Virus record (IMG/VR): IMGVR_UViG_3300044712_000083
Coordinates: 32,001 to 96,000 of that record
Origin: a virus
DNA length: 64,000 nt
Strand: one strand, 5' to 3'
The notes under the pieces were generated by a model that saw nothing but the letters and a program-made list of their open reading frames with translations, ran no database searches and was not told the DNA's origin. This document shows positions 3,079 through 61,911 of the stretch, one piece after another (the first letter of the stretch is position 1; every line of letters begins with the position of its first letter). The position numbers were made by a program, and so were the translations under genes.

Positions 3079-3084
3079 GATTAT

Positions 3085-3459: not shown

Positions 3460-3463
3460 TGTA

Positions 3464-4150: not shown

Positions 4151-4308
4151 TATTTACCAGCTTTACGAGCTCTGCCCATTGCTTTAAATGTCTTAGCTAA
4201 AGCTTTACGTTTTGGTGTACACGTAGCTTTAGTCATAGGAGTGCAGTATCCTTTATGTTTAGGATTGACTGCTCCTTGAATCCAGTTCTTCTTTGATGCT
4301 TTTGCCAT
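4150..4308 (-). CDS. Small basic protein, 52 aa (MAKASKKNWIQGAVNPKHKG...ALAKTFKAM), not in ORF track
   Basis: Hand translation: ATG at 4308, TAA at 4150-4152 overlapping the next ATG. Confidence 0.75.
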   Translation of the reverse strand: MAKASKKNWIQGAVNPKHKGYCTPMTKATCTPKRKALAKTFKAMGRARKAGK

Positions 4309-16787: not shown

Positions 16788-16906
16788 CCTCTGTATTTCT
16801 TCTTCACTGATTTATCTTTCGGTCCTGCAGACTTAGCATGTTTGCCCTTACGTCTTACACCAAAGATAATCTTCTTAGATTCTGAAGATCCTTTTGCTTT
16901 TGCCAT
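16775..16906 (-). CDS. Small basic protein, 43 aa, ending KKYRGQGR; not in ORF track
   Basis: Hand translation; ATG overlaps the endolysin TAA (TAATG). Confidence 0.75.
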   Translation of the reverse strand: MAKAKGSSESKKIIFGVRRKGKHAKSAGPKDKSVKKKYRGQGR

Positions 16907-17769: not shown

Positions 17770-18001
17770 TGTATTTCTTTTTCTTAGATGGTTTCTTTTT
17801 CTTAGGAGTAACAACCACTGCTTCACCAGCAATCTTTTCTGCAACAGCTTCAGGAATTTCTACAATTGGAGCTTTCTCAGGCTCTACAATTGGTTCTAAT
17901 TTTGATTCATCCACAGCTAAGTTAGCTTTATATGCAGGAGCAATTGGAGTTTGTTCTTTCTTTCCAAAAAGTAAAGAACGTAAAAAGTTTAAAAATTTCA
18001 T
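17753..18001 (-). CDS. Hypothetical protein in the lysis cassette
   Basis: 82 aa; amphipathic N-terminus and Lys-rich C-terminus; coupled to neighbours. Confidence 0.65.
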   Translation of the reverse strand: MKFLNFLRSLLFGKKEQTPIAPAYKANLAVDESKLEPIVEPEKAPIVEIPEAVAEKIAGEAVVVTPKKKKPSKKKKYNGNIT

Positions 18002-23943: not shown

Positions 23944-26900
23944 CTATCGCATATTGTTCTCTGCCTGAATTGTAATATCAAATTCTTTAGCAAAGTCATT
24001 ACTAAATGATGCACCTAAGTTAATCACTGGTTTGAAACCTGGAGTTAACTTCATCAATGTTTTAATAGGGTAAACTTTCTTTCTAACTTCTTCAGGAGTT
24101 GTTTCTGCATCAAAATCTTGTCCTGTAATTTCTTGACCTAATTGTCCAGCAAACTTAAATACGTCTGCAAACAATCCTAATGCAGGAAGTTTATCTCCAG
24201 AAAGAATACGCTCAATCTCCATAGGGTTATAGAAGAATGAAAGCTCATCTGTAAACTTGTTCAGCATACGTTCTGTGTAACGCTTAGCGTTCTTCGTAGC
24301 TTTATCATCATCATCGTCTGGAGCAATCAAACCAAATCCACCTGTGAACAAGATTGTCATCAATGTAAATAATATACCAAGCTCTTTAATCTGATTACGA
24401 AGGTTGTTTACAATCATATCAGTGAAATCAGCTTTGGACATATTCATCTCTGTTCCTGTACGATCTTTCCACTCTTTCTTATACTTAAGGAATAGCTCAT
24501 CAATGATCGCCATACCCTTCTCATTAGCAGTTAGAATGTTAGTGATGTTAGAGGATAAGTCACGAACACTAGTTACCCATACAGTTGTTAATAATCTAAG
24601 ACGACCTATATCATATCTTTCTCCAGTTACTTTTCCTGTTACAGGATCAATACGTACAGAGAAGTCATCACTTGTTTTCTTGAACTCTGAGAAACGTACA
24701 TCAACAAGACGAGGAATCCAGTTTTGGAATACCATCGCACTTCTTGCCCAGATGTTCATACCTGCTTTATTAATATCACCGTTAGATAAGTTACCCGTGA
24801 TACTTCTAGCAATGTTTCTTGATAGATTAGTTAGACGTTGTGTCTCATCTAAGTTATTCAAGTCTAATCCAGGGATAACAAGCTTACCGTTTTCTAAACG
24901 TTTAGTAACCCACATGGACTTTGTCTTCTTAAGCTCCTCAATCTCTTCATTAATTTTTTTCTTACTTTCTCTGTATAGAGCAGAAGAGTCAGCTCTGTTC
25001 TGATACTTAGCACTCACATACTGTTTGATATTAACAATGTTACCATCAACAACCATGGAGTTCTTCATCAATGTCAAGAACACAGCTTTATCAATAAACT
25101 CTTCGGGCTTTCTCATGAAGAACATTAACATGTCTCCAAGGTTAGCTCTAGTAAGTGCTGAGATACCTGCCTCCTCATATAGCTTCTTAAACGGACTATC
25201 TTTAAGTGGCATGAATGTTTCCATCAATTGAACGAATGTTTCTGCACTTTCTTCATTTTGAAATATACCACTCATTAAATCAGCCTCACTACTTAAGAAC
25301 TCTCTACTTTTAAAGTATGTACCAGCTAATGCAGACATCTGAATGTTTGCACCAAATAAGTTGGCAAGACCAGAGAACGGATCAAGACCTAATGCTTTCA
25401 ACTGATACCACTTATTGATCTTCTCCATTGTCTTAACTGCAGACAAAGGTGTAGGATTCTCTTTGTACACTTCTCTACCAGCAGCCTTGTTAATCAATCG
25501 CTTAATGATATTCATAGGATTACCTATAGCAGTATCTGCATCAGATAAAGGATATCTTTGCTGTAACACTAATGCTTTGTAGAAGTTATCATACGTCTCA
25601 GTGTTTTCTTTATTCTCTGTAGTAATAACTACTGGTGTACCATCTTCTTTAGTAACAACGTCACCAAGTCTAGTTGTTTGTAAGTGTCCTTTGAACTCTT
25701 CAATTGTACTAAGTAGTTTCAACTGACCAGACACTTCTTTCAAATACTTGTACTTCTGTACGTGTTGAATATATAACACCAAGTTTGCAAAGATGTCCTC
25801 ACTAATTTGTGAAAAGTCTGTAGTATCACCAGCTTCTTTCTTTGTAAAGTCTTTGGTGTAGTATTTAGGAATACCGTTCTCAATCTGTTGTGTAAATTGG
25901 TTAATCTCACCAAGTCCAACATCTTTAGATGTAATTCTTAAATCATCTCCAATCTTACCTAAGTTCTCATAGAAATTAGCAATAGCAGAACCCACACCAT
26001 CAAATGCAACCTCCTCAGCCATAGTCTTAGCAACAAATGGTAAGAAGGTTTTCTTAATCATGTTACTAATGTATCCTTCTTCTGCAGCAATATTGTTTAC
26101 TTTCTCAATAAAGTTATAGAGCTTTAATAATCCTGGATCCTGCATAATTCTTTTGTATTCTTCTGAATACCATTTCTCAAGAGGATGACGCTTAACAATA
26201 TAGTTATTCCAACCATCAAAGTCTACACGGTCAATATCATATTTACGTTTCTGTTGTTCAATTAAGAACTTTCTACGTTTGATAGTCTCATCGTCATTAC
26301 CTGGATTGTTTCTTTCTATAGATTTTATTTGTCTATCAAGAACTTCAGCAGCCTCTTTCTTATAAGCTTCTACATCAATATTATTTAGTAACCAGTTCTT
26401 ATCTCCACCTTCTGGATCATTAGCATTCTTATCAACAGCCTCACGGAATTCTTTAGTATAAACATATACTAAGTTATTCATTCTCTTACCCTCATCATCT
26501 TTTTGATAGATGCTTCTAATCTTCTCCATGACGTTACCACCTTCCATCAGTTCTTTTCTGATTTCCAATAGTTCATTAACTAAAGCAATGCCATCTTTAG
26601 AAGCTTTATTTTCTGCAGCTTGTGTAACCTTAAATAAGATTTGTAAAGACTTCGAACCTAAGTCAGATACTCCACGGAACCAAGAGCTAATACCTTTGAT
26701 TACAGCTTCTGGATCCATCAATCCACCAACTAAGTTTCTCCATCCAATATACTTATCACCAAACCCGCCTTTACCTATTAATAACTTCTTAACACTTTGT
26801 TGAGTTCTAGCAATAGCACTTGCTTCTAATGTAAGTTCTTCTAATACACGTTTTCTTTCTGCAACTTGTTTCTTCTCCTCTTTAGTCTTAGCACTTTCTG

Positions 26901-45607: not shown

Positions 45608-48600
45608 TTATAGGTTTTTAATTGCTCTAGCTAGATTACCACCATTTCTTGTAAGTACATCTTCTGTATCATCATCACTACTAGCTTTAGTCTTTTTAAT
45701 TGTGTAACCTTTAATGTTTCCATATGGATCGTATTGAGGAAGTAATGTATTACCGCTCTCATCATCAATTACTCCCATACCTCTAGACTTACTTGAACCT
45801 CCTCCAGACATATTGAAAAAAGTATTATACAATGGATTTTTGTAAGCTTGTCCGCCAGGAGTGTAGTTAAATGCTGGGAACGTAGCACGTGCAACATTAA
45901 ATTGCATTTGCTCATTTCTAGCTTTAGCAATCTTCTCGCCAATAGATTCCAATGCAGCTTGAGTTTGTTTAATTGTATTTTGCTTAGCTCCAACCATCTT
46001 ATCAGCTTGGTCAGCATACAATTGAATGTTAGCCATTTTAGCTTGATTCAATGCATCTGTATTAGCTTTCATTACATTAAATCTCTGTTCTTGATTTGCT
46101 AGTAAAGCTTTTGATCTAATTTGATTCTTAGCATTGTAAGCTTGAGCAGCTGCATTTGCAGCAAGTTCAGGATTATTTTGCATTAATCTATATGCAGCAT
46201 TTGCTTCAGAAGTAACTTGATTTATCTGATCATCCATTCCGATAGAATACGGAGCAATCAATTCAGGAGTGTATGATTGTGCAAACACTGGCTCTTGCTG
46301 ATTGTTAGCTAATGCAAAACGCTCTCCTAGTAATTGATTAGCATCTAATTTATATTGATCAGAACCTTGAACAAAAGGAACAAGTGAATTAAGTGCAGAT
46401 CCAAATATATTAAGTAATGAGTTATCTTTTGGAGTAGCGGCATTCTTTTTTGCTTTACGTAACTTCTCTTCTGCCTCAGATACCCCTGGAGTGAATACTC
46501 TAGATTCAGCAGGCATCCAGTTTGGTACATTAGGAGCATATTCTTTTGGTTCTTCTCCTTTAGGAATTGGTTGTACAGCTGTATCAATACTAGTATTCCT
46601 AGGCTCAACTGTGTCATATATCTTTTTTGTTACAGCTTTACCAAGTGCATTTGTTGCTGGTCCAAATCTACCATCTACAACACCCTTCTTTGTAACTTTC
46701 TTCATTCCTGTAATTCTCTTAACCTCATCTGCACCAAGTGCTTCAAGAGCTGCTTTTTGGAATTTACCAATAGCCATCGCATCTTTAGTCTTTACAGCTG
46801 TTTGATACAATGCAGCAAGATCACCAAGAGTTTTCATATTCAAGCCATCTTTACCAAGAGCTAAACCATGTCTACCATAGATGTCTGATTCTTTCAATGG
46901 TGTAATCTTACCCTTAGCAAGATCTGCAGCTTTGTAACCAAACTCTTGAGCAGTATCTTTAATTGCATTCTGTAAAATAGCATATTCTTGATTCTGTTGA
47001 CCAAGTTGACCTAGTTTCATCTTAGCACCATCCTCAATAGCCTTAGCTGTATTTAATCTAATCTTATCTATAGTAGTATAAGTCTTTGTTTTATTAGCTA
47101 AGTCTGCAGCTTTTTGTAAAAGTTTAGTTTGTTTTTGTTCTTTCATAGCAATGTCTTTAACATCTTTTTTAAACTGTCTATTAGTTATAGGATTAACCAT
47201 TGCTCCAACTACAATCTTATCACCAGAATTTCCGCCATTTTGCATACTCATTACAGGCTCATTAGTTTCAATCTCTGCTTGTGCATCATCTATTGTACCA
47301 CCTTGCTCATACCCTACACCAATTCCTGTTTGTCCTGTACGAGAATCTCTCTTATCATGAGAGTTTCCTACAGCAAGATCTATTGTTGTACCTGTAACAG
47401 GGTTGTATGATAATGGTTCAAATCCTCCACCCCACAATGCATGTAGTTCACCATCAGAAGTTGAGCCTTGCATTTGTCCACCATATTGCATTTGATATGG
47501 TAAGTCACGTCCTGTGTACATAGCTCTTTCACTAGGTGGAGTGTATTCTTTTAAATGTCCACCTGCGCGTAACATATCAGCATCAGCTGGAGGTGCAAAC
47601 AATTGATCGACATCATAATCACCAAACTTAGCAATTACTTGTGGATTGTATTCTGGATTCATATATCCTCCCTCTTCTAAAGTCATTCCATTTTTAGCAA
47701 ATGACTTATATTTACTTTGCAACAAGTCTTGTGTAGAAGCTGTACCCACTAATCCTATTCCTTTGTTTCTTTTCTTCTCTGCTTCTTCCATGGCATTCTG
47801 ACCAATTATTCCACCAATAAATCCTCCAGCGGCTGAACCTATTGCTGAACCAGCAGGACCAAAATATGCACCAGCTAGTCCACCAATAGCAGATCCTGTA
47901 TCAGCTGCTGTATTAGTTTTAAACTTTCCTCCACTAAATGCAGATCCTGCAGATCCTCCTATTGCACCAAATGTTGGAGCAAATTTAGCATAGTCTATAG
48001 TTCCTCCAGTTTGGAATTGTTTAATGTTACTGTCACCTAATGGTTCAAATCCAAGATCAGAATACAAGTCACCAGGATTGTACATGTTCTGAATCTCTGT
48101 AGGATTACCACCAATCTCAGATCCATTTCTAGATAAGTAAGTGAAGTTAGGATCTCCTAAAGGTTTGTACATTTGTCCTGGAGTAGTTCTTGAATCTTCA
48201 GGACGCATAATTCTTTGCGGATATTGTTCAACTGGTTTGATGCCTTTTTCAAGATCAGCTATCTTAGCAAGAGCATCCATTTTTCTAAGTTGATCTCTTT
48301 CTTCAGATAATGCTTGAAGACCTCCTACAATACTATTAGCAGAACTTAATGCTGTTTTAATAAACTTTTCATTACGTTCTTTCTTAGCTTTTTTTGCAGC
48401 AGCATAAGAATCTTCAACCGAAATACCTTTATCAATAGATTTATCCATTGCATCCGTAGTAGATTGAATATTCACAGGAGCTTGAGCTTTTTTTATAACA
48501 GCACTATACTGAGCCTTCTGTAATTTTTTACCATGCTTCTCCATGAAAGCCTCCTCTGTAGGATACTTCTTGTAGAATTCAGCTTCTGTTTTAACTCCAG

Positions 48601-48625
48601 CAATTTTTAAGATTTGAGCTTTCAT
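45608..48625 (-). CDS. Virion cargo / ejection protein with a glycine-zipper segment and many xxxGG motifs
   Basis: GSAIGGLAGAYFGPAGSAIGSAAGGFIGGIIG; VDGRFGPAT (PG-binding-like); Gln/Ala/Asn-rich C-terminus. Confidence 0.75.
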   Translation of the reverse strand: MKAQILKIAGVKTEAEFYKKYPTEEAFMEKHGKKLQKAQYSAVIKKAQAPVNIQSTTDAMDKSIDKGISVEDSYAAAKKAKKERNEKFIKTALSSANSIVGGLQALSEERDQLRKMDALAKIADLEKGIKPVEQYPQRIMRPEDSRTTPGQMYKPLGDPNFTYLSRNGSEIGGNPTEIQNMYNPGDLYSDLGFEPLGDSNIKQFQTGGTIDYAKFAPTFGAIGGSAGSAFSGGKFKTNTAADTGSAIGGLAGAYFGPAGSAIGSAAGGFIGGIIGQNAMEEAEKKRNKGIGLVGTASTQDLLQSKYKSFAKNGMTLEEGGYMNPEYNPQVIAKFGDYDVDQLFAPPADADMLRAGGHLKEYTPPSERAMYTGRDLPYQMQYGGQMQGSTSDGELHALWGGGFEPLSYNPVTGTTIDLAVGNSHDKRDSRTGQTGIGVGYEQGGTIDDAQAEIETNEPVMSMQNGGNSGDKIVVGAMVNPITNRQFKKDVKDIAMKEQKQTKLLQKAADLANKTKTYTTIDKIRLNTAKAIEDGAKMKLGQLGQQNQEYAILQNAIKDTAQEFGYKAADLAKGKITPLKESDIYGRHGLALGKDGLNMKTLGDLAALYQTAVKTKDAMAIGKFQKAALEALGADEVKRITGMKKVTKKGVVDGRFGPATNALGKAVTKKIYDTVEPRNTSIDTAVQPIPKGEEPKEYAPNVPNWMPAESRVFTPGVSEAEEKLRKAKKNAATPKDNSLLNIFGSALNSLVPFVQGSDQYKLDANQLLGERFALANNQQEPVFAQSYTPELIAPYSIGMDDQINQVTSEANAAYRLMQNNPELAANAAAQAYNAKNQIRSKALLANQEQRFNVMKANTDALNQAKMANIQLYADQADKMVGAKQNTIKQTQAALESIGEKIAKARNEQMQFNVARATFPAFNYTPGGQAYKNPLYNTFFNMSGGGSSKSRGMGVIDDESGNTLLPQYDPYGNIKGYTIKKTKASSDDDTEDVLTRNGGNLARAIKNL

Positions 48626-48626
48626 A

Positions 48627-51600
48627 TTAATCTTGGTATTTATCTAACCAGCCGCCTGGTTGTTTAGTGTTGTAATTAGTAAAGTTAGTTAATTGGTCCA
48701 GCTTTGTCAACTGTCCTCCTTGTTTCATCATAGGGTACTCTGTAACAGAATCTCCAATGTATTGATACTCTTGGTTAGGATACATCATTTGCATGTCTCC
48801 TGTGTCAGATATACCTAGTACAGGATAAGGTACACCTTTCATTGTTATCTTATTAGATTTGATCTTAGTAACTTTTCCAGGATGAGCCCATTGTCCCATA
48901 TCATCTTCAATCACAGAACCGTTCTTAGAGATTGATTTAGGTTTGAAGTCTAAACCATTCTGATAAAACTGCATTCCATTTTGTGCCATAGGTAATCCTT
49001 GTTGAGGATCATTGGCTGCAATAGTATTTAATAGTTCAACAACATCCTCAGGACTCATTATTTTTAAAAGATCTCTTAGTCCAGAGACTTTACCTTTTAA
49101 ACTATTAACATGTTCAAGTGTAGCTTTATCTGTTTTAGGATCATAATACTGATATTGATTATCACTTGATTTAAAACCTGAACCAAAACCTGAACCAGAA
49201 GATTGAGCACCTACATTATTACTTTCATCATTTTTTATTAATAAAGGATATTTCTTCAATGCTCCACGAATCTCTTGAAGTCTACCTGTAACTTCTGTTG
49301 GCTCACTTAAATACCTATATTTATCCACACCAACCTTTTCTAACTTCTTACTTACTTGTTCAGAAGTTCCCATTGTTTTATTAGAAATTAAATTCTTTTC
49401 ATACTCAGTTAGATATCTTCCCCCATCATCATAAGCATGTCTAAATTCATGTCTTACTGTATTTCCAAATTCATCAATACCATACTTATCTAAATTATCA
49501 CTTAATGATATTAATGCACCTTTATTTTCAGGATCATAGTAACCAAGTACAGGACCTGTACCACTAGCTGTTCCACTACCTGTAACAAACTCTACTGTAG
49601 GATTAGCTAATTTACTTTCTCTTTTAACAAGTAGTTCCTTTGTTCTTTTATCTAAAGCATCTTTATCTACAGCACCTAAATCAATATTTTGTTCAGCAGC
49701 CATATCATGTCTAACTGCATCTTCAAGCATGTTATATCTAAACTTAGATCTACCTTCTTCAATAATATCCAAAGGTGCTCTATTCATTATCTCTTCTTCT
49801 TGCTTAATTCTTCTTTTATTTTTTGTAGTTGATTGTTTAACAGGTTCTGTTTCATTTAATTCTATACCATCTACTGCAGAAGGTAATGTCTTCTTAGCAT
49901 ACGGACCATTGCTAGGAGCAGGATTGTTTGTACGTGCGTATGTGAATCCTACAGCTCCTGGAAGAGAGCCCCCCATTGCATAATCTCTAGTTTTAAATAG
50001 TAAAGGAATGTTCTTATTCTTTTCTACATAGTCATGTCTAAACTTAGCAAAGTCTTCAGCAGATTGTATAGTTTTAAATGGACCACCTAAATGTTCTCCT
50101 GTAAAATTAAACAATCCTTCAGGATCCTCCACTAATCTTCCTTGTTTAAATCCTGGAACTAAGTAGTACTCACCATCTTTACCAACTGTTGTAGAATACT
50201 CTGTAGATATTCCGTTTTCTCTTGGATTATATCCAATATTTTGAAAAGTTTGAGTTGGTTGTAAGAACTTCTTAACAGGTCCACCATCTTCAAACTGTCC
50301 TCCCCATGCAGGAGAATAGTTACGTCCTACGTTACTATATCCACTACCTTCATATCCTTCAGGAGCTGAGACTGTATAGTTGTTAGCATTTAAGTCTCCA
50401 CCATCTTCATACTTATCTAACCAACCTCCTTCTTTAAATTGTAAGAATGGTTTAGTAAGTTTAATCTCAGTAGTTGGAGTTATAGAATTGATAGGAGCAT
50501 GTTGCTTAATATTGCTCTTTACTTTATTTAAGTAATCAAATCCTTCAAACTTTGGGTTATCTTTAAACTCATAGAAGTAATCTACAAGTTCTTGATTGTT
50601 AGCTTTACTTGGAGAGTTCCAAGATAACGTAGCCATATCATATAACTTCTGATCACTCCAATCAGGATGCTTCTTTGCTAATGAATTTTTTAAATCATAG
50701 AAGTTAGCTATTGCTGCAGTTAATTCATTTTCAGCACTGTTGTAAAAATCATTCTTACCACCTTTACCTATTTTTAAATCTCCTTCAGTTAAACCTAATC
50801 TCTTTGCTGTTTTAGATAAGTATTTTTGTCTAAATGTACCAACAGATGGATCTGTATTAGATAAAGCAAAAGGCTTTGGTCTATTATAAGTAGTAGTATA
50901 TAAACTCTCCAATGCTTCATTAAATGAAATACCTTCTTTCTCTGCTAGTTTACTAGCTTCCATTTGCATTTTACTTTTGCCAGGAAATTCTAATAAATCT
51001 GGATTCTCTACATATTTTCTATTGCCATATTCTTTAACAGCATTTATAACTTCCTTAACAGGTTTAGTTAATCCTACTTCTCTTAATTTATCTTGAATTA
51101 GTACTTTGGCTTTAGTTAAACCTTTTGCCATTTTACCAGACATCTTAGATTCTTGGATACCAATACCTAATACATGTCTGAAGATTTGATCAAGCTCATC
51201 TGCATGAATACCTAAGTTACCAATTAATGTAGGTTTTATTTTATCATAAACTTCTTTATAAGGTTCTAGTTCTGGACTCACTCCAAAATCTATTGTACCT
51301 GTATTTAAGTTTATATCATTTAGAATAGCTCTCTTTGCAATCTCTTTGGACTTACCTACAAATTGCTGAGGTCTAACAATACTTCTAATTCCTCGATTAG
51401 AAGCAGCATTATAATAAACATTGTTTTGTATAGGCACAGTAATTAACCTACCATCAAAACTTTCACCAATCAATAGATTATTTCCATCTGGACTCATGCC
51501 CACAACAGTTGCTCTATGATTAACACGTGGTTCTTTAAGATTTCCAGTAAGAGGAGATTGTTGAGGATGTGCAAGAAATGCGTCTGGACCAAACATCACT

Positions 51601-54290
51601 TGATCACCAACTTGTACATTTTTTAAAATATCCGAATTAAGTGGTCCGTGTGTACCTTCATTATATACTAACTCTCCCTCATTCTTTAACATCTGATATG
51701 TAGTGTACCAAGCATTGTCTGCATTAGCAGCATAGTTATATGCTTCACCAGGAAGTATTTGTCTACTAACACTTGATGCTATAGAATTTGCAATCTTTGC
51801 ACATTCTGCATCAGATCCACACCCATGCATTAATTTATTTCTCTGGTATAGATGACTTAAGTTTTTATCATATACTAGTTTCTTAAATTCTTTACTTGTT
51901 TTATAACCTGTTGGAAATAACCCACTACCAGACCCTGGTTCATAAATAGGTAGCTTGTATTGTTCTGCTAATTCTGGATAAGCATCCAAATGCTGATCTA
52001 TACTGCTAGAAAAGTCTCTACCTATATTAGTGTCAAATAAATCATCTATAATATGAGAAGGTCTTATGTAACGCTTTGGCTCAGCACTAGTATTAATACT
52101 AGGTGTTCTACGCAGTGCACTAACTGCTTCTCCTAAAGTAGATCTTACTCCTGGTAATGCAGATGCTACAAACGGTAAAGCATTTAATGCTGTATATCCT
52201 GTTTGCAAAGATGCATCTGCTATATTTCCTGAAGTAGGATCTTTAAAAGCTTTCTTAACTGACTGTGCAACATTAGGTATATTATTAGCTGCCTCATATG
52301 CAAATCCAGCATTCAAAAGATTATTAGCAGTTAATCCTGCTACTCCAGCTATAGGAGCTTCCATTGCTGCTCCTATGTATGGTAATATTGCAGGACCAGC
52401 TACAGCACCCGCAGCTATGGCAGGAGTTGTATACATGAACTGATTAGCAGCTACATCACCTGCTGTTGGATTGTATCCAGTAGGGGTTAATGAACCAAAG
52501 GTTTGGGCAAGCTGAGAGTTATTAATCATATCTTGTCTCTCTCTAGCTTTTTTAACTGCAGCTCTTTGAGAAGGTGATATGTTATCTGCAGAAATATATG
52601 TTTGTCTTTTAGCAGCTTCTGCAGCAAGTCTAGCTTTTTCTATCTCAGCATCTCTTGCTATTTCTTCTTTAGTCTTTAGACGTACTTTAGCTGGTTGTTG
52701 TACAGTTACAGCATCTTTCTTAGCAACAGTACCACTATATTGATATTTATCTAACTCACCCCCATTCTTGTATGGATTAAGAATAGATGTTGTAATTTCT
52801 GAAGGACCTGTTGTATTTTCTACACGTCTAATCAATCCTTTAGGTAATAATATTTCAGATTCATTAGGGAATTTACTATAACTTGTTGCATTAGGAAATG
52901 CATAAGATTGCATTCTGCCACCTGGAAGAATTATATTATCTAAGAATTTATATTCATTTTGGTGATCCATGTTGTAAAAACTAGTAGGTAATGATGTAGA
53001 TAAAAACTCATTGTCTTTATATATATCTCCCACTTGTAATTCTGATCTACGTTTTTTACCAAGAAATGAATTAGTATTAGGATCAATTAAATTTACATCG
53101 TAGTTATTAACTGTTCTATTAACTACTGTTTCTTTATTAATTTTATTTTTTAAAATTGCATCATTTAATCTATCAGATAATGTTGTAAAATGATTTATTA
53201 AATTTTCAGGTAATTTTCCAGTTGCGGATACTCTATTATTAAAATAAGGATAATAACTTTCTGTATAAGCACCCATCAATGCTCGTTCTTCTGGAGTTAG
53301 TTTAGAAAGATCATAACCTTCAGTATCATAGAATTGCTTAGAGGCAACACCTCTTAGATCATAATTACCAGACTTCATGAAACTGTGTTCAGGAGCTATA
53401 TAATCATTTATAGTATATTGTGGCAATCGATCTGCAACTCTTAATCTCATGTTCAATAACATAGCTTGATCAACAGCCTCTCGTGCGTTAAAATCTCCTT
53501 GACTGATTAAGTCAGGTCTTAGTTCATCAACTGCTTTATTATATATTTCCTTTAATTCCTTATCTGAAAACTTAGTAAAATCATTTCCAAGTGCTCGTTT
53601 AGCAAATTCTATATGTTGAGTAGGTTGATAATCAGAGATAGGTCTACCATATTTTTGATGTACGTTACGAGATACACCTGCTGCTTCTTGTAAAACATCA
53701 TTAGTAGTATTAGCTACTTGACCAGCATCAGCAATATAATCTGTTACACCTGCAACTTTTGCAGCATTAGCTGGAATATTTGCAGCATTAGCAAATGGTC
53801 TATATGCTGCTAATCCTAATCCTGTAAGTCCCGCATTAAGTAAAGCAGAACCATAGTTACCTTGCAATGCATCTCTTCCTCCTAAATAACTAGAACCAGC
53901 CATGCTTAATAATGTACCAGCACCTTCAAGATATGGGGAAGCAGGTCCTGTGATTGGAGCAATCAGTTCTAGTCCACCGCCAATATATTGAGCCTTATTA
54001 GCAACATCGTCATACATCTTTTGTCTCTGCTCTTGTGTAGCTATGTCTTCCATAGCTTGCTTCATAGCAGGAGAAGCAGATGTACCTAGTTTATTAATGT
54101 AAGTTTTTCTCTTAGCTACCTCCTCATTAAACTTATCTTTTCGATTAGCTTCTATTCTTTTCAATTCTTGAGAATCCAATACCTTTGGAATAACTACTTT
54201 ATCTTTCTTAACAGTAGTTAATCCAAATGGATCTAAATTACCATCGTAAGCATATTTATCTAACCAACCTGAAGATTTCTGCTTTCCCAT
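48627..54290 (-). CDS. Multi-effector cargo polyprotein (R-S-E ADP-ribosyltransferase, CHAP-like, lysozyme-like, HExxH metallopeptidase)
   Basis: AYT...VNR...FLSTS...ESEILLP; CAK...GDQVMF...NH...IGES; QES...GTFRQ...SWN; HEFRH...EPTE; domains separated by G(W/E)LDKY and xxxGG motifs. Confidence 0.8.
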   Translation of the reverse strand: MGKQKSSGWLDKYAYDGNLDPFGLTTVKKDKVVIPKVLDSQELKRIEANRKDKFNEEVAKRKTYINKLGTSASPAMKQAMEDIATQEQRQKMYDDVANKAQYIGGGLELIAPITGPASPYLEGAGTLLSMAGSSYLGGRDALQGNYGSALLNAGLTGLGLAAYRPFANAANIPANAAKVAGVTDYIADAGQVANTTNDVLQEAAGVSRNVHQKYGRPISDYQPTQHIEFAKRALGNDFTKFSDKELKEIYNKAVDELRPDLISQGDFNAREAVDQAMLLNMRLRVADRLPQYTINDYIAPEHSFMKSGNYDLRGVASKQFYDTEGYDLSKLTPEERALMGAYTESYYPYFNNRVSATGKLPENLINHFTTLSDRLNDAILKNKINKETVVNRTVNNYDVNLIDPNTNSFLGKKRRSELQVGDIYKDNEFLSTSLPTSFYNMDHQNEYKFLDNIILPGGRMQSYAFPNATSYSKFPNESEILLPKGLIRRVENTTGPSEITTSILNPYKNGGELDKYQYSGTVAKKDAVTVQQPAKVRLKTKEEIARDAEIEKARLAAEAAKRQTYISADNISPSQRAAVKKARERQDMINNSQLAQTFGSLTPTGYNPTAGDVAANQFMYTTPAIAAGAVAGPAILPYIGAAMEAPIAGVAGLTANNLLNAGFAYEAANNIPNVAQSVKKAFKDPTSGNIADASLQTGYTALNALPFVASALPGVRSTLGEAVSALRRTPSINTSAEPKRYIRPSHIIDDLFDTNIGRDFSSSIDQHLDAYPELAEQYKLPIYEPGSGSGLFPTGYKTSKEFKKLVYDKNLSHLYQRNKLMHGCGSDAECAKIANSIASSVSRQILPGEAYNYAANADNAWYTTYQMLKNEGELVYNEGTHGPLNSDILKNVQVGDQVMFGPDAFLAHPQQSPLTGNLKEPRVNHRATVVGMSPDGNNLLIGESFDGRLITVPIQNNVYYNAASNRGIRSIVRPQQFVGKSKEIAKRAILNDINLNTGTIDFGVSPELEPYKEVYDKIKPTLIGNLGIHADELDQIFRHVLGIGIQESKMSGKMAKGLTKAKVLIQDKLREVGLTKPVKEVINAVKEYGNRKYVENPDLLEFPGKSKMQMEASKLAEKEGISFNEALESLYTTTYNRPKPFALSNTDPSVGTFRQKYLSKTAKRLGLTEGDLKIGKGGKNDFYNSAENELTAAIANFYDLKNSLAKKHPDWSDQKLYDMATLSWNSPSKANNQELVDYFYEFKDNPKFEGFDYLNKVKSNIKQHAPINSITPTTEIKLTKPFLQFKEGGWLDKYEDGGDLNANNYTVSAPEGYEGSGYSNVGRNYSPAWGGQFEDGGPVKKFLQPTQTFQNIGYNPRENGISTEYSTTVGKDGEYYLVPGFKQGRLVEDPEGLFNFTGEHLGGPFKTIQSAEDFAKFRHDYVEKNKNIPLLFKTRDYAMGGSLPGAVGFTYARTNNPAPSNGPYAKKTLPSAVDGIELNETEPVKQSTTKNKRRIKQEEEIMNRAPLDIIEEGRSKFRYNMLEDAVRHDMAAEQNIDLGAVDKDALDKRTKELLVKRESKLANPTVEFVTGSGTASGTGPVLGYYDPENKGALISLSDNLDKYGIDEFGNTVRHEFRHAYDDGGRYLTEYEKNLISNKTMGTSEQVSKKLEKVGVDKYRYLSEPTEVTGRLQEIRGALKKYPLLIKNDESNNVGAQSSGSGFGSGFKSSDNQYQYYDPKTDKATLEHVNSLKGKVSGLRDLLKIMSPEDVVELLNTIAANDPQQGLPMAQNGMQFYQNGLDFKPKSISKNGSVIEDDMGQWAHPGKVTKIKSNKITMKGVPYPVLGISDTGDMQMMYPNQEYQYIGDSVTEYPMMKQGGQLTKLDQLTNFTNYNTKQPGGWLDKYQD

Positions 54291-55176: not shown

Positions 55177-58100
55177 TTAGCAGATTCCATCTGATATCAC
55201 TGTACCACCTGTATTCAATTGAATATATCCGTTGTCAGTGTTGTAATATCCAGATCCTAATGTAGATGATCCAATTGAATCTGTGTAGATTGTTTTACCT
55301 ATACTAGGAACACCACCTGTACAGTATGCTAATTGATCTACAGCTCTTGTACAAACATTGACAGGCGTTCCAACTGTACTGATATAGAATGGATCATATG
55401 AAGGAGGTACGTATCCACATGTAGGGCTATTAACTTCAACTACTTGTTGATTTCTTGTAGCACTTGTACATGAGTTAACTTCTTGGCTCCATAGAGTAAA
55501 TCCTACACAGTAGTATTGTAAATCCCAAGTACCACAGCTTTCGCTCACTGTACCTGTATCAATTGTTCTTGTAGTTCCTGCAGCACAAGGATTAGTTTGT
55601 ACTTGATCTTGACGTAATGTACATGATCCTGTTATGCAATATGCATTTCCTGAATTAACCCAAACTGGAGTAGTGTCAGGATAAGAGTTAGAAGGATTAG
55701 TTGATTGCCATGTTCCACCTACTAAATAGATGTTAGCTCCTGTGTAACAAGGATTGCTATTAACATAAACTGGAGTTGAATTAACTGTACCACTTGAACA
55801 TGTGTAGTATGTACCTACTTGACCTCCTTGGGTTTGAGTGTTACTAGCACCGCAAGCACCACTACATGTTACATCGTAAGTGTTACCTGTTGGATTACCA
55901 TTACAGTAGTATTTCTCAATGAAACGCTGTGTTGTTCCTAAACAAATGTAATCTGTGTAGTAAGTTCCGTTACATGCTTCATTACACTGACAAGAGCAAT
56001 TACTAATTACATAAGATGAACTTTCTCCACAGTCATTGATTGTAGGTTGAATCAATGCGTTTCCACTACATATTGGAGATCCCGAAGGTACATAATTTTG
56101 TCTATTATACAATGTAAATGTTAAATTATTACCAGCAGTTAATGTAACAGTTGATCCACTGCCGTATGACGATCCATTAAGTATAGCTGAACAAACATAG
56201 AAACCATCATAGTCTACACGAATTGTAGTTCCTACAGGATAACTTCTAGAACCTCCATCCCAACTAGGATCTGCAGTACCATTGATATAAGGTGTGTAAG
56301 AACTAACATTCAATCCATTTAACGGATTCAATGTTACTGTTACAGGAGCAATAGTAGTACTTGTAGTAGTAGTACTGCTTGGAGGTACAGTGGTACTAGT
56401 TGATGTAGTAGATGTTGAGCTAGTACTTGTTGTTGTACTTGTACTAACAGGATTCATATAAAGTGTAATAGGATCACTAAGGTTAGTACATGCTGCACTA
56501 CCAACATATGCTTGAATAAAGTTACCAGTAGGAGTACCATCCCAATCAACATTAATTGTCTGACTTCCTGCAGAATTAAATGTTAATGATATAGGAGTTC
56601 TAGTTCCACCAGCAATTGAAGTACCGACTACAATTGGATATGAAGTAGAGCTAGGAGCACTCATTGTAACTGTGTAAACAGCAGATTCAAATGGTGCTAC
56701 TGTTGTAGGTCCTGTGAATGTCCAATCACCATTTACAATCGGCACACATGCAAGCGTTGTACTTGTACTAGTTGTAGAAGTAGAAGTAGAAGTAGACGTA
56801 CTTGTTGAAGTAGATGTACTAGATGTAGATGTTGAAGTAGATGTTGTAGGTCCTACATATTCTGTTGTTGTACTAGTAGTAGTTGAAGTAGGTCCTGAGG
56901 TAGTACTAGTAGTGGTACTTGTAGTTGGAGTTAGAGTACTTGTAGTACTTGTAGTTGGAACTATTGTAGTAGTAGTACTAGTTGTAGGAGCAATAGTAGT
57001 AGATGTGCTTGTAGTTGAAGTAGTAGATGTACTTGATGTTGACGTAGATGTTGAAGTCGAAGTAGATGTACTAGTTGAACTTGTAGAACTTGTTGTAGAA
57101 GTTGTTGTTGGAGTGTAGTTTATAGCATCAATAGTAAACACACAACCTTCTTTAACTGCATTTCCTACCAACTGACAAGGAGTTACATATGACGCACTAC
57201 CATTCAATGAACAATAAACATCTATTGGTCCAAATGTAGTTGAAGTAGTTGTAGTAGATGTACCAAGAATTGTACTAGTTGTAGTAGTAGTTGATGGTCC
57301 TACATATGCAGTGGTAGTTGTTGTAGTAGTTAATCCTGATGCAATAGCAGAAAAATCACAACCTTGATTGTTTCCAGAATAGAAGAAGTTATTCTCAGCA
57401 ATGTAATAGTTAGGAATATAACTATGGAAAGAGATCCAACTCTTTGTATTCATGTTGTAAGACAATGTCCATGACTTATTACAGAAGTATGTAATGTCAT
57501 TTAACTGAACAACCTCTTTAATTGTAGTATTTCCTGCAATAGGATAGATGTAATATTCTTTATAGTAACCTACTTGTGCAGGATCTGTACCATAGAAAAT
57601 CTTACCAACCCAATTTGGTTGTGGGATGTAGTCAAGTTTAGTGATAATGATTCTATCAAATTTAGAATCATACACACCTGTTAAACCAACCTTAGTATAA
57701 TTGTTATCTACATCAGCTTCAGGGAAGTAACGTAAGATTTCAAATGCTAAATGGTCAGTCATAAAACGATTGACACCTGAACCAAATGCAGATAAGTCCA
57801 CAACTTGTGTTCCTGTTACTAAGAATATCTGTCCACGTTTAGCATCAATTGTTACTTGTCCATTAGGAATCTTTAGCAACATCTTGTGTTGAGATCCTAC
57901 ATATCCTAAATCTGTCTCAGCAAAATCAATTGGAGGAGCAGATCTAAACAATGTAGAATTACCAATATAAGCAGCTTGTGGATTGCTTGTATCGATTGTA
58001 AGCATTGTGTTGTATAACAATGACTTATTCTCAAAACGAGCTAAGATAGCCTTGTTTTGGATACCATCTAATGATGTAAGCTTTCCGTATGTTTGAGGGA

Positions 58101-61100
58101 AATCAAAGAAAGAAGCAGGTCTATACAATAACCAGTTATTCACCTTACTTGTAGAAGATGGATCTTGTTGATCTGAATATATAGCTCTAAACGGAAACTC
58201 TTTTTCACAAGCACTATTTGTCCAATTTAAAGGAAGGTGTGAGAAGAAGTTCTCTGTATTCTGTTTAGAATAACTTAAGTTGTAGTAGTATGTATTATCT
58301 ACTGCAATAGGTACTCTAACTTGTTGCAACCAATCATCAGGAATACCAGAACTTACACGAGGGTAGAAGTTACCTTCATTACCATTATATGCTTGACGCA
58401 AGTCTAAGTTGATAGAACTCTCACAATAGAAGTAAGGAATTCCATACGCAAACATATACATCTTACCATCGTAGAATGATTGAGTATTACTTAAACTTGT
58501 AGCTCCATCATAATTAGTACCACTAGGTGGGGTTGGTGTAGTTGGTGTACTTGTATATATAGGATCAGAAGGGCAATCAAAACAATGTGCTTTGATTGAA
58601 ATAAAATTTGTTAATGTATCACTTCCTAAAACAATATCACTCAAAACAGAACGAGATGAATGCCAGTATTGAGGATAAGCAATATTACCTAATTGATCAT
58701 AATTAATATCTGAATCATCTGGAGCTAATACCCTATTGTCAATAAAGAATGGAAGTTTAGTTTTAAATGCAAACTTACCAATGAATGTATCACCACCAAA
58801 TATAGTTTTAACTCCTGTAGGAGAATCTCTATCTACTTGGAATCCTGTATCAATTGTTTCGTATGTATAGAGTTGTCCCCATTGATTACGAACAACATTC
58901 TTAATTGATGCATAGTAAGATACAACCTTAATAGATTGTAACTCTTCAGGAACTGCACATTTCTTTTTCTGTGATAATGTAAATCTAGAATCATCAGAGA
59001 TTTTACCAGCAATAGAATCTATATCATTTGGAAATCTAAGAGGAATAACTGTAGTAGTGTTATCACTACGCTTTTCTATAGTTTTTAAATAAACAGATGA
59101 CTCACGTTGGAAGTTATTAAGATCCCAAGTATCTCCTACTGATTGTACGCCTGGATATACATATTGATACTTATCAAGTTGTCTTTGCTTAACACCATCA
59201 CCGTTCTGAATATTTCCAAAATAGTCATAACTTGCAATTGAGTTGAATGAGTATGCAAAGTTTTTTCTAGTAATTCCACTAATATAAATCTGTAGATAAG
59301 ATTGGTATGCAGCAAATACAGCATTCATATCTCCATCTGCTATAGCATAGCTAGAAACTAATGCTTTTTGTTGAATAGCTTTTGTAATTAGCTTATAACT
59401 TGCATTACTTTTAACAGGAACAAAATGTGCTTTTCCTGCTCCATACATTACATTCTCAAGCTTCAATACATCTCCTAATGTAGGTTGTCCAAACGATGTT
59501 TCAGGAGAGTTAAATACTTGTCTGTATTTAGTTTCATTATTAATCTGACCACCTGGCTCATTGTTTACAGTAAAACCAGTGAATTTTTTAGGATAACATT
59601 CAGGATTAAATGAATCTGTAGATGTTGTTATATAATTCTTTGATCCACTTACATATGTTAACTTTGCACCAATTGGAAATCCAGGAATTTCAATATATTC
59701 AACAAGAACAGTTTTTGGAGAATCTGCTACAGTAACTGTTATTTCTTTAGTAGCTCCATCTGCATACGGATCTCCATATGTAAATTTAGTAGAATCTAAA
59801 GCTCCGTCTTGATTTACAACAATAGTAACGACAGTTGTATATTTCCCAATGTATGGACTAAATATGTTACATACTAATCCACCTGTTTTTTGTGGAAATG
59901 TAGTTGAGCAAACATATTGTGGCTCCGTTTGAGCAACAATATTAATTGTTTTTACTTCATTAGTAAAACAGTCATTATAAATTAATGAGCCAGGAGATGT
60001 AACACCAGTAATCTTATACTTCTCCGATTGACCACTATATGCATTGTTTTGCTTAAGTAAGAACGGATCTGTGTTAAGATCGTTATATGGATAGTTAGGA
60101 TAATAGTAGTATGTAGGATTAGGAGAACTTGATTCATCTCTTGTATATCTACCTACGTTTCTTAAAATACCCTTTGCAACAATAGATTTGTTTGTATTAC
60201 GATTACCACGGACAATCTTATATCCAGCAATTTCGTTTCTTTGTTCAGGAGTTAAGTATGTCTGAATTAATGATTCAATCTGTGCTGTGTCAACTCTAAT
60301 ACCAAGTGGGTAGATAGCATTAGCAGATTTCATCTCCACTTGATACTTACCTGCAACTTCGACAGGAGTAGCACTTTCAAATGCAGGACTTACTAAAATA
60401 TCAGGAAACTTGTGATGACGAATTGGTCCTGTTAATCCTGCTTCTGTAAATACTGGTCCTTTATATTCTTCAGTTGATTGCCAGAATGCAAAATCACCAT
60501 ATTGATATGGTGTTGCACCATTAATTGTTGGTCCTGTAGCAGCAACCCCATTACCTGCAGTGTTATACACTTTCCAACGATCAAGTGGTTGCAATGTATC
60601 ATCCTCAGCAATATAGTCTGGATTACTTTTATCAACTTTAGGATTTATATCTGAATCTTTAATTGCTCTTCCTGGAATATGGAAACCATCTGTCTGCTTA
60701 CCATTCTTTAACAAGAATACAATCTCAAATGCATATACCTCATCACGTAGATAACCACGTAAATTAAGTGCATTTAATTCATCTGCATAGTTTTGCCCTG
60801 CTGCCATTTTGTATGACTGCCATTGCAATGTAATTCTAGCAGCAACTTTTTGATAGTCAACTCTATTATTAGATTTTAATCCATCCCAAATCAAAACATC
60901 CTGTACAGAAGTTACATCATTGGCAATATCATAGTATGGATACTTCTCAAAGATTTCTTCAATAGCTACAGCAATTGGAGTTTTGTTTTGTCCAGAATAG
61001 ATGACAGTATTTTTACCAGTAGTTGCACCAGTTTCAGCAGGAATTTTATCAATTAAGTATGTACCTAATAACTCAGCAGAAGTTGCATTATTAACTGTTT

Positions 61101-61911
61101 TAATTACAGCAACATTGTAATAATCAAAGTAACCTTTGATATCAATGTTAGTAATAGTAAGCTGAATAGACTTGTTAACTTGATAGTTGAAGTCTTGTGT
61201 TTCTACAGTTGTATTAGCAATAGGAAGAGGATTCGTAACAGAATAATAAGATGTATATCCTGCTCCTGTAGAACTACAATACTGAATAGCAAACTGATAT
61301 GTACCAGCAATCAACTCTCCACCATTTAAAACATCTGTAACTGAAAGTTGAGGGATGTCAAAATTAGGTTGGATATTTAAAATATTACAATCAGTTAATT
61401 CATTATCATCAGTATCAAATCTACCTAAGTCTAAATATCTACGAGGGTTTTTACCATCAGTCCAATATATCTCAATAGAAGGCTCATCATCAATTACACA
61501 ATTTGCAACCTTATGTACAACTTTATGTATAGGATAGTTTACATCAAAGTTCAAACATGCTCCTTTGACGTATGTATGATATTTACAATCATTATTAACC
61601 ATGTAACCAATCTGATATTCAGGATTGATTGAACTAGGTTTCATTAAAAAGAAAACATGTTTATTCTGTTCAGGAATAAAATGTTTACCAATTAAAATAA
61701 AATTATCAGGAAACTTTACGCATAGCTCATTACCTGCTTCATTCTGATAGTTAACAGAATTAGCATCAAAGTTTTCTACAGCAGCATTCAATGCGTAAGT
61801 TAAACTTCCTTTAGGTATTTGTGCTACTGCACTATCTAAATTCAGTCCTGTTTGTGCAAAGTTATACTCGTTAGTAACGTTACCCTGATTAGTTGTTTCT
61901 TCTGCGGCCAT
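55177..61911 (-). CDS. Tail stabilisation / muzzle-like protein with a mucin-like Thr/Ser stalk and Cys-rich C-terminal domains
   Basis: GLNLD...YALNA, IYWTDGKNPRRYL, GYLRDEVY, FGGDTFI, WISFHSY motifs of crAss-like stabilisation proteins; position after the tail tubular gene. Confidence 0.8.
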   Translation of the reverse strand: MAAEETTNQGNVTNEYNFAQTGLNLDSAVAQIPKGSLTYALNAAVENFDANSVNYQNEAGNELCVKFPDNFILIGKHFIPEQNKHVFFLMKPSSINPEYQIGYMVNNDCKYHTYVKGACLNFDVNYPIHKVVHKVANCVIDDEPSIEIYWTDGKNPRRYLDLGRFDTDDNELTDCNILNIQPNFDIPQLSVTDVLNGGELIAGTYQFAIQYCSSTGAGYTSYYSVTNPLPIANTTVETQDFNYQVNKSIQLTITNIDIKGYFDYYNVAVIKTVNNATSAELLGTYLIDKIPAETGATTGKNTVIYSGQNKTPIAVAIEEIFEKYPYYDIANDVTSVQDVLIWDGLKSNNRVDYQKVAARITLQWQSYKMAAGQNYADELNALNLRGYLRDEVYAFEIVFLLKNGKQTDGFHIPGRAIKDSDINPKVDKSNPDYIAEDDTLQPLDRWKVYNTAGNGVAATGPTINGATPYQYGDFAFWQSTEEYKGPVFTEAGLTGPIRHHKFPDILVSPAFESATPVEVAGKYQVEMKSANAIYPLGIRVDTAQIESLIQTYLTPEQRNEIAGYKIVRGNRNTNKSIVAKGILRNVGRYTRDESSSPNPTYYYYPNYPYNDLNTDPFLLKQNNAYSGQSEKYKITGVTSPGSLIYNDCFTNEVKTINIVAQTEPQYVCSTTFPQKTGGLVCNIFSPYIGKYTTVVTIVVNQDGALDSTKFTYGDPYADGATKEITVTVADSPKTVLVEYIEIPGFPIGAKLTYVSGSKNYITTSTDSFNPECYPKKFTGFTVNNEPGGQINNETKYRQVFNSPETSFGQPTLGDVLKLENVMYGAGKAHFVPVKSNASYKLITKAIQQKALVSSYAIADGDMNAVFAAYQSYLQIYISGITRKNFAYSFNSIASYDYFGNIQNGDGVKQRQLDKYQYVYPGVQSVGDTWDLNNFQRESSVYLKTIEKRSDNTTTVIPLRFPNDIDSIAGKISDDSRFTLSQKKKCAVPEELQSIKVVSYYASIKNVVRNQWGQLYTYETIDTGFQVDRDSPTGVKTIFGGDTFIGKFAFKTKLPFFIDNRVLAPDDSDINYDQLGNIAYPQYWHSSRSVLSDIVLGSDTLTNFISIKAHCFDCPSDPIYTSTPTTPTPPSGTNYDGATSLSNTQSFYDGKMYMFAYGIPYFYCESSINLDLRQAYNGNEGNFYPRVSSGIPDDWLQQVRVPIAVDNTYYYNLSYSKQNTENFFSHLPLNWTNSACEKEFPFRAIYSDQQDPSSTSKVNNWLLYRPASFFDFPQTYGKLTSLDGIQNKAILARFENKSLLYNTMLTIDTSNPQAAYIGNSTLFRSAPPIDFAETDLGYVGSQHKMLLKIPNGQVTIDAKRGQIFLVTGTQVVDLSAFGSGVNRFMTDHLAFEILRYFPEADVDNNYTKVGLTGVYDSKFDRIIITKLDYIPQPNWVGKIFYGTDPAQVGYYKEYYIYPIAGNTTIKEVVQLNDITYFCNKSWTLSYNMNTKSWISFHSYIPNYYIAENNFFYSGNNQGCDFSAIASGLTTTTTTTAYVGPSTTTTTSTILGTSTTTTSTTFGPIDVYCSLNGSASYVTPCQLVGNAVKEGCVFTIDAINYTPTTTSTTSSTSSTSTSTSTSTSTSTSSTSTTSTTSTSTTIAPTTSTTTTIVPTTSTTSTLTPTTSTTTSTTSGPTSTTTSTTTEYVGPTTSTSTSTSSTSTSTSTSTSTSTSTTSTSTTLACVPIVNGDWTFTGPTTVAPFESAVYTVTMSAPSSTSYPIVVGTSIAGGTRTPISLTFNSAGSQTINVDWDGTPTGNFIQAYVGSAACTNLSDPITLYMNPVSTSTTTSTSSTSTTSTSTTVPPSSTTTTSTTIAPVTVTLNPLNGLNVSSYTPYINGTADPSWDGGSRSYPVGTTIRVDYDGFYVCSAILNGSSYGSGSTVTLTAGNNLTFTLYNRQNYVPSGSPICSGNALIQPTINDCGESSSYVISNCSCQCNEACNGTYYTDYICLGTTQRFIEKYYCNGNPTGNTYDVTCSGACGASNTQTQGGQVGTYYTCSSGTVNSTPVYVNSNPCYTGANIYLVGGTWQSTNPSNSYPDTTPVWVNSGNAYCITGSCTLRQDQVQTNPCAAGTTRTIDTGTVSESCGTWDLQYYCVGFTLWSQEVNSCTSATRNQQVVEVNSPTCGYVPPSYDPFYISTVGTPVNVCTRAVDQLAYCTGGVPSIGKTIYTDSIGSSTLGSGYYNTDNGYIQLNTGGTVISDGIC
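56350..57330 (-). repeat. Low-complexity Thr/Ser(Pro) coding tracts
   Basis: Three tracts of ACT/ACA/TCT/AGT codons; the longest is about 56756-57115. Confidence 0.9.

Follow-up and report, generated by a model that had tools for sequence, protein, structure and literature searches.

Short terminal peptides direct cargo into HK97-type shells in the case of the capsid targeting sequence of the T4 internal proteins and Alt, and also in that of the cargo-loading peptides of encapsulins. The T4 cargo that is directed in this way includes an ADP-ribosyltransferase (ART), a flexible stretch links the peptide to the cargo, and in T4 the tag, found only at the N-terminus, is cut off by the prohead protease. 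Short peptides can also act as demarcation marks: VENN in CdiA and PxxxxDPxGL in Rhs proteins are located at the border of the variable toxin cassette. The variable cassettes of polymorphic toxins are known to diversify by recombination (Zhang et al. 2012, PMC3482391). Among phage proteins, polyvalent proteins are already known, which carry at least two unrelated effector domains on one polypeptide, are encoded beside virion genes and are presumed to be injected (Iyer, Burroughs, Anand, de Souza, Aravind 2017, PMC5512222), and so are the cargo proteins of crassviruses. In PhicrAss001, residues 425-552 of one such protein, gp45, were resolved by cryo-electron microscopy as a compact domain that is present in twelve copies on the wing formed by residues 337-380 of the portal protein gp20, while the remaining chain, most of which was not resolved, is believed to pass through the portal and on into the tail barrel; gp45 was also proposed to form a membrane channel, and neither a protease nor a maturation cleavage was reported in that study (PMC10172136). 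Here, we analysed a stretch of 64,000 nucleotides of viral DNA (positions 32,001 to 96,000 of the IMG/VR record IMGVR_UViG_3300044712_000083, hereafter the window) and focused on its gene P0001, encoding a protein of 1887 amino acids (aa) in which a short peptide, GWLDKY, recurs at both ends and at the borders of the modules. By analogy with the systems described above, we propose that this WLDKY peptide may dock or load the protein in the virion and, in addition, form the junction between cassettes, a reading whose chances of being right or wrong we consider about equal.

Four copies of G[WE]LDKY are found in P0001, at aa 8, 511, 1289 and 1880 (window 54252-54269, 52743-52760, 50409-50426 and 48636-48653, respectively; Table 1), while a six-frame search of the window gave no other copy. 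From the composition of the protein, 0.0002 copies would be expected by chance, and only 4 out of 20,000 shuffles of P0001 contained even one copy. The recurrence of this motif at the N-terminus, inside the protein and at the C-terminus had been noticed in a previous sequence-only reading of the window, and all four copies could be located; the FEDGG, YAMGG, MAQNG and MKQGG sites listed in the same reading are also all present, and [FYM]xxGG sites as a class are enriched in the protein (8 observed versus 1.3 expected, z 5.6). Within the window, a comparable enrichment was detected only in the adjacent gene, encoding a protein of 1005 aa (6 versus 1.0 expected, z 5.2). Structure prediction gave single helical turns within disordered linkers for the motif copies. 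The AlphaFold model of aa 1280-1887 displays three folded blocks (the small domain, the zincin block and the beta domain described below) with low-confidence stretches between them, and the motif and the PhixxGG sites are located in, or at the edge of, these low-confidence linkers.

A word-indexed search identified 207 homologues of 1037-3303 aa, and the only regions that most of them have in common with P0001 are aa 1280-1475 and aa 1775-1887. When a profile of the shared backbone was searched against 1.84 billion representatives, 3072 clusters were detected at E<=1e-3 and 1073 at 1e-30, and IMG/VR, scanned with the C-terminal domain, gave 44 loci. The motif, in the form GGWLDKY(Q), is the end of the protein in 230 of 252 sampled members (~91%), and 207 of these 252 members (~82%) have a copy in their first 60 residues. 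Almost all of the homologues have copies at both termini and at the internal junctions. At the N-terminus, the copy either reads M-K-GWLDKY or has the form NGGWLD-x-Y, preceded by a zinc-ribbon-like CxCG[WH]SW unit; the internal junctions have the consensus [KE][ND]GGWL[DE]KY-x-DGG, and the extreme C-terminal form is FTNYNTKQPGGWLDKY, followed by 0-3 residues. Variants of the motif include WLNKY, WLSKY and WLDTL. W-L-[DE]-K-[YF] with a preceding G is kept regardless of the position of the copy, and the best-conserved copies are those at the very ends. The shortest members of the family (161-240 aa) correspond to a bare backbone, made of the N-terminal WLD-x-Y, the GRNYSPAWGGQF-xx-GG peptide, the PGAVGFTYART...SAQNG peptide, the beta domain and the invariant tail. 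The zinc-ribbon-like unit that precedes the first GGWLD-x-Y (~38 aa, CxCG[WH]SW...CHxCG) is found in 84 of the 252 members, for example at L022:9638-10327 and L025:9281-10321; P0001 does not have it.

Conservation of the motif is seen in the peptide rather than in the DNA. The four copies of the window have only some 12-18 identical bases in common, and the choice of codons for G, L, D, K, N and Y over 99 motif copies in the loci is similar to that in the rest of the genes. This background-like variation at the synonymous positions of the motif shows that the peptide, and not a DNA site, is under selection, and a purely DNA-level recombination site was rejected on the basis of this codon analysis.

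Comparison with relatives shows that cassettes are gained, lost and exchanged at the motifs. When P0001 was aligned with its relatives using BLAST, 76% of the alignment endpoints fell within intervals around the WLDKY/PhixxGG sites that make up 10% of the length. The relative P0002 corresponds to P0001 minus aa 14-516, so that one exact motif-to-motif unit of 503 aa is gone, and its remainder is identical to P0001 at 1380 of 1384 residues (99.7%). In a second relative, P0003, cassette 2 and the C-terminal part have 94-98% identity to P0001, and two slots differ, namely the first cassette and the insert in the small-domain slot. P0376 has its ART cassette in the last position, where NGGWLDKY again closes it immediately ahead of the stop. 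When cassette proteins that stand alone were searched for below 1037 aa, only four relatives were obtained, all of which carry the backbone or the motif. According to the sequence-only reading, P0001 would be built from cassettes whose borders are tracked by the motif, and this is borne out here: the motif is conserved in homologues, where the copies persist while the content between them varies, and the breakpoints, the P0002 deletion and the P0003 swaps all agree with the domain borders. Considering its conservation at every junction, we see a balanced chance that the peptide doubles as the joint for the gain, loss and exchange of cassettes.

A further arrangement was observed in eight members (P0015, P0038, P0053, P0054, P0088, P0094, P0134 and P0183), in which the usual C-terminal QPGGWLDKY is internal and is followed by an extra cassette; most of them have a precomputed Amidase_2 match, and these proteins end with ...KEY.RIL.YM...NFK. 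This arrangement indicates that extension is also possible at the C-terminal side.

The modules found between the motif copies of P0001 are listed in Table 1. The ART domain matched PF03496 with 37.7 bits, compared to a cut-off of 23.4, and its catalytic motifs were found at aa 431 (STS) and aa 477 (ESE); this is the only Pfam match in the whole protein. Each of the two N-terminal cassettes opens with a homologous leader of ~170 aa bearing a Gly/Ala-rich hydrophobic stretch, in agreement with the Ala/Gly-rich segments that had been noticed before the enzymes of these cassettes. For aa 760-1285, which gave no Pfam match, the nearest ESM Atlas clusters carry CHAP plus Lysozyme_like/SLT domains (scores 0.90-0.92), and this region is probably a CHAP plus lysozyme/SLT pair, the ESM Atlas result being a lead rather than a proof. 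Both backbone segments are predicted to be disordered in the AlphaFold model. The small inserted domain has a folded core at ~aa 1364-1429 (predicted local distance difference test score, pLDDT, of 65-81), is absent from the minimal members of the family and gave no match in an ESM Atlas search. A 270-residue block around HEFRH matched the M13 peptidases PepO (4iuw) and neprilysin with VIA Z scores of 9.2 and 8.8, respectively, followed by 8.7; nearly all the top rows were zinc peptidases, and Foldseek gave weak matches to SPRTN and selecase. The conserved small beta domain had no convincing structural relative, its best VIA match being a cupin-like small barrel (Z 5.3). Out of the modules that the sequence-only reading had recognised, the ART was thus confirmed by Pfam and the HExxH peptidase by its zincin fold, while the CHAP/lysozyme pair remains a lead. 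Searches of the whole gene against the INPHARED phage collection found nothing at the DNA or protein level, the protein had no PHROGs or NCBIfam match, and a sequence search of the PDB gave only a chance-level match.

Table 1. Features of P0001 and of its neighbouring genes, with nucleotide positions in the window
Feature	Residues (aa)	Position	Strand	Basis
Motif-bearing cargo-type gene P0001	1-1887	48627..54290	(-)	open frame, 1887 aa
Motif copy 1, GWLDKY, N-terminal	8-13	54252..54269	(-)	N-terminal copies kept in relatives
Cassette 1 leader, charged helix and Gly/Ala-rich hydrophobic stretch	14-230	53601..54251	(-)	in 17/120 relatives
ADP-ribosyltransferase domain	329-493	52812..53306	(-)	Pfam PF03496, E 1.7e-9
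Motif copy 2, GGELDKY, E for W	510-516	52743..52763	(-)	edge of the 503-aa unit absent from P0002
Cassette 2 leader, paralogue of the cassette 1 leader	517-740	52071..52742	(-)	E 7e-8 between leaders
CHAP-type Cys-His amidase and lysozyme/SLT-like pair, probable	760-1285	50436..52013	(-)	ESM Atlas
Motif copy 3, GGWLDKY, followed by EDGG; start of the conserved backbone	1288-1294	50409..50429	(-)	84 breakpoints at aa 1281-1290
Backbone segment 1, ending with near-invariant GRNYSPAWGGQF-xx-GG	1295-1337	50280..50408	(-)	nearly invariant alignment columns
Small inserted domain between FEDGG and YAMGG	1338-1441	49968..50279	(-)	in 62/120 relatives
Backbone segment 2, PGAVGFTYART...SA-x-x-G	1442-1478	49857..49967	(-)	nearly invariant alignment columns
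Inserted zincin-like metallopeptidase module, HEFRH at aa 1614-1618	1480-1767	48990..49853	(-)	in 22/120 relatives
Small beta domain, conserved	1792-1855	48726..48917	(-)	pLDDT 84-91 when modelled alone
C-terminal tail, LDQLTNFTNYNTKQPGG-WLDKY-QD	1856-1887	48630..48725	(-)	most conserved stretch of the family
Motif copy 4, within the C-terminal tail		48636-48656	(-)	230/252 members end with the motif
288-aa gene, directly upstream of P0001		54292..55158	(-)	present there in nearly all loci
Crassvirus muzzle homologue		55177..61911	(-)	Pfam PF25731 crAss_MUZ, E 6.9e-37
1005-aa cargo-type neighbour		45608..48625	(-)	same PhixxGG punctuation, own conserved termini

The payloads between the motifs are diverse and mostly without a known family. 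A Pfam match was obtained for only 6 of the 63 members that were scanned, and the precomputed Pfam content among relatives includes Amidase_2, LysM, PG_binding_1, YkuD, SET, SprT-like, ART-PolyVal and DUF6973. With so few matches among the sampled members, the slot is expected to be rich in unknown host-takeover, cell-wall and anti-defence enzymes.

The viral record that encloses the window is complete (114 kb) and has terminal repeats, and its portal gene is located at positions 105810-108392 of the genome. P0001 is encoded among late/virion genes, as expected for a co-delivery with the DNA, and it is followed downstream by genes for proteins of 1005, 900, 4448, 1841 and 1341 aa, in that order, which is the same layout as that of the cargo plus virion RNA polymerase block of crassviruses such as PhicrAss001 (PMC10172136). 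Wherever the 44 loci cover this region, the order is constant: three small virion genes, the muzzle gene, the 288-aa gene and a single gene with the motif, after which come homologues of the 1005-, 900- and 4448-aa genes. The slot is occupied by a single motif-bearing gene across the 44 related contigs, with products that range from 161 to >2100 aa. The closest cultured phages are remote, with only 24-28% identity in the N-terminus of the muzzle protein (Cellulophaga phi4:1 and phi17:2, Flavobacterium FpV4 and a Leptolyngbya phage). The source of the window is an uncultured, probably marine, crass-like phage, and the hosts of this family are probably marine Flavobacteriia. From its gene position and synteny, P0001 is probably a phage protein that is packed into the virion and injected into the host. 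The part of the sequence-only reading by which the protein is built from cassettes, here within the block of cargo genes, is strongly supported by the comparative data.

Other observations were made on the genes of this genome. The 288-aa gene had no family match, and its candidacy as a protease was rejected on the basis of this result, of its beta-rich sequence and of the absence of obvious catalytic motifs. In three loci (L022, L026 and L033), the motif gene is ~700 bases further away from the 288-aa gene, and an additional small gene may sit there. The 1841-aa protein (window 23944-29469, minus strand) carries an ART-PolyVal domain (PF18760, aa 83-211, E 1.7e-10), so that two giant proteins of this phage each carry an ADP-ribosyltransferase. 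At 2857-4308 on the minus strand, five consecutive genes encode small, strongly basic proteins (52-124 aa) with a high content of K, G and A; some of them contain KKAQTG- and FQKNGG-like bits, and they may be DNA-associated internal proteins. An endolysin-like gene (16906-17844, minus strand; PHROG 181, E 2.9e-64) is distinct from the cell-wall enzymes of the cargo protein.

The described protein that most invites a comparison with P0001 is crassvirus cargo protein 1, i.e. gp45 (PDB 7QOG, 7QOI, 7QOJ, 7QOL and 8CKB). Both are encoded just downstream of a muzzle gene, which the gp45 gene of PhicrAss001 directly follows, and both share a Gly-rich hydrophobic N-terminal region, PhixxGG punctuation and a GG[WYF]L motif. 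In PhicrAss001 gp45, AF-GGWLNTQGG is located at aa 425-435, exactly at the start of the portal-bound ordered segment 425-552, and gp45 homologues of other gut crassviruses display GG[WYFI][LIMV] at the same place together with PhixxGG punctuation. The homologue of the Bacteroides phage DAC17 (L052) has two repeat units ending with GGYLYEDGGG and GGFLDDY, close to the motif of the window. These units result from a tandem duplication of GGGIHIKK...RKRA.FA.NA.KWN-x-AEGG[YF]L, indicating that repeat units ending in GG-aromatic-L also exist in a gut crassvirus cargo protein 1. In Cellulophaga phi4:1, gp040 (L046:29121-31808), encoded two genes past the muzzle homologue, contains four [FY]QxGG sites versus 0.8 expected, and it is a virion protein confirmed by mass spectrometry according to the annotation of its record. 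P0001 differs from gp45 in that the resemblance is at the level of the motif only, with no detectable sequence or profile homology, and in that members of its family carry the motif at both termini and between cassettes, contain enzyme payloads and have an enormous length range. The 1005-aa neighbour of P0001 is more gp45-like than P0001 itself and may be the nearer counterpart of gp45: it contains a Gly-zipper region and six PhiQxGG sites, and it has homologues in L002-L045. Its extreme termini are invariant in 36 loci, as it starts with MKAQILKIAGVK..EKEFYKKYP and ends with RNGSIVKAIKNL, or with SQSSIVRAFK in one subgroup, which fits cargo proteins with terminal address peptides. The hhalign comparison of the backbone profile with this neighbour gave only a weak, short match at the level of the motif (E 0.024).

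In the mechanism that we favour, the product of P0001 would be a hypervariable, payload-carrying cargo (ejection) protein of a crass-like phage. Its conserved and mostly disordered backbone comprises short invariant peptides, the small beta domain and, at both ends, the WLDKY peptide, which has Gly-Gly flanks and is predicted to form one helical turn. Enzyme cassettes enter this backbone N-terminally, as units that each bring another copy of GGWLDKY, or are inserted at [FYM]xxGG hinges, and their exchange at the peptide joints would take place between co-infecting phages. WLDKY and the invariant C-terminal tail would then act as a docking or loading element on a conserved inner part of the virion, most likely the portal or the lining of the tail barrel by analogy with gp45, and the whole polypeptide string would be packed, presumably uncleaved, and later ejected as a largely unfolded thread. 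We lean slightly against a stronger version, by which WLDKY, with Gly-Gly on its flanks, and the invariant C-terminal tail of 25 residues would form a portable address peptide, sufficient to load any protein into crass-like virions through docking on the portal or tail lining.

Several observations weigh against a docking or loading role. Three to five motif copies need a further reason, as a single tag is enough for loading, exposed Gly-flanked linkers also look like protease sites, and the presence of the protein in virions is deduced from synteny. The link with gp45 is also weakened by profile and fold searches: hhalign aligned the backbone profile with gp45 over 13 columns only, corresponding to the short motif (E 0.11), PF25725 (crAss_CARG1) had no match in the whole genome at E<=10, and neither Foldseek nor VIA listed 7qog for the beta domain (best Z 5.3). 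A candidate equivalence between the beta domain and the portal-binding domain of gp45 is not supported by these searches.

If WLDKY was a cleavage signal instead, GGWLDKY and [FYM]xxGG would be sites for a phage or host protease, and the cassettes would be freed in the prohead or after ejection, as modelled on T4 internal proteins, phiKZ inner-body proteins and the GG-X polyproteins of large DNA viruses. Such processing would account for the sites being found wherever two modules meet, in Gly-rich linkers that are predicted to be disordered, and on both sides of each inserted module, and a candidate enzyme is at hand in the zincin module of P0001 itself, as autoprocessing by such peptidases was already proposed for polyvalent proteins (PMC5512222). 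This module is however found in only 22 of 120 relatives, and the complete genome gave no match for S78, S77 or ClpP proteases (the S77 search having no positive control), nor for C48-type (PF02902) or C39-type (PF03412) peptidases at E<=0.1. Furthermore, only 2-8 residues precede the W of the N-terminal copies and 0-3 follow the Y of the C-terminal ones, and minimal members of 161-240 aa, if cut at all sites, would leave only short peptides. In PhicrAss001, the motif is inside an ordered segment of a chain that was modelled as continuous from tail to capsid, and cleavage is unreported. Since the end copies are the best conserved and cleavage there would free almost nothing, the peptide appears to be recognised wherever it is placed, as expected for docking or loading, and we consider processing unlikely. 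The sequence-only reading had left a choice between a protease cleavage site and a capsid-loading tag: the data agree better with a tag for loading or docking than with protease cleavage, as the motif is found within a few residues of both termini and as its counterpart in gp45 belongs to an ordered segment bound to the portal.

The exact motif-to-motif indel in P0002, the swaps in P0003, the homology breakpoints at the sites, the presence of the same cassette in different positions and the recombination by which polymorphic toxins diversify (PMC3482391) could also be explained if the motif was nothing but a conserved flexible joint, needed for the exchange of cassettes and for the unfolding of modules through the portal and tail, without any specific partner. 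A pure hinge would however need no invariant W, L, K and Y and would leave unexplained the copies at the very ends of the protein, which have nothing to connect, and the DNA is not the conserved object, given that the synonymous sites are unconstrained and that the copies have so few bases in common; this makes a joint without a partner improbable in our view. A role after ejection, in which the amphipathic W/L/Y turn would be a membrane anchor, would mediate self-association of a trans-envelope conduit or would capture a host envelope protein in the manner of a colicin Tol/Ton box, is in our opinion also improbable. The motif is paired with a Gly/Ala-rich hydrophobic leader in each N-terminal cassette, cell-wall enzymes in the cassettes suggest a periplasmic action, and gp45 is a proposed membrane channel, but minimal members keep the motif without any hydrophobic leader, and the sole structural datum for a similar motif places it at the portal, inside the capsid.

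The docking or loading peptide that we propose would differ from the T4 tag: in P0001, the peptide is present at both ends and inside the protein, and no gene of the protease families that were searched was found. As in CdiA and Rhs proteins, a short conserved peptide marks the border of exchanged cassettes; in those secreted bacterial toxins, however, a single C-terminal cassette is concerned, whereas the P0001 family has several cassettes, is encoded in a phage virion-gene block and also carries the motif at the extreme termini. P0001 resembles polyvalent proteins by its domains (ADP-ribosyltransferase, zincin peptidase and the cell-wall hydrolase lead), by its location beside virion genes and by its presumed injection, while the description of polyvalent proteins covers combinations of domains and not a backbone with a recurring junction and terminal peptide, and no mention of such a motif was found in it (PMC5512222). 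Literature searches with the letters of the motif gave nothing relevant, and those combining crassvirus cargo with ART or polyvalent terms gave no direct paper. One peptide shared by the ends of a backbone and its cassette junctions, in a fixed hypervariable slot and over thousands of lineages of uncultured marine crass-like phages, thus does not seem to be described in the literature that was searched.

Crass-like phages are among the most abundant viruses, and how they select, store and eject a large protein cargo is an open question, for which the conserved end and junction peptide provides a concrete and testable candidate loading or docking signal. The single genomic slot that is described here holds >3000 sequence clusters with presumed injected payloads. 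If the peptide is truly an address, thousands of lineages would use the position behind the muzzle gene as a natural plug-in site for mostly unknown injected effectors, and, should the tag prove portable, proteins of choice could be brought with it into phage particles in laboratory phage-bacterium systems.

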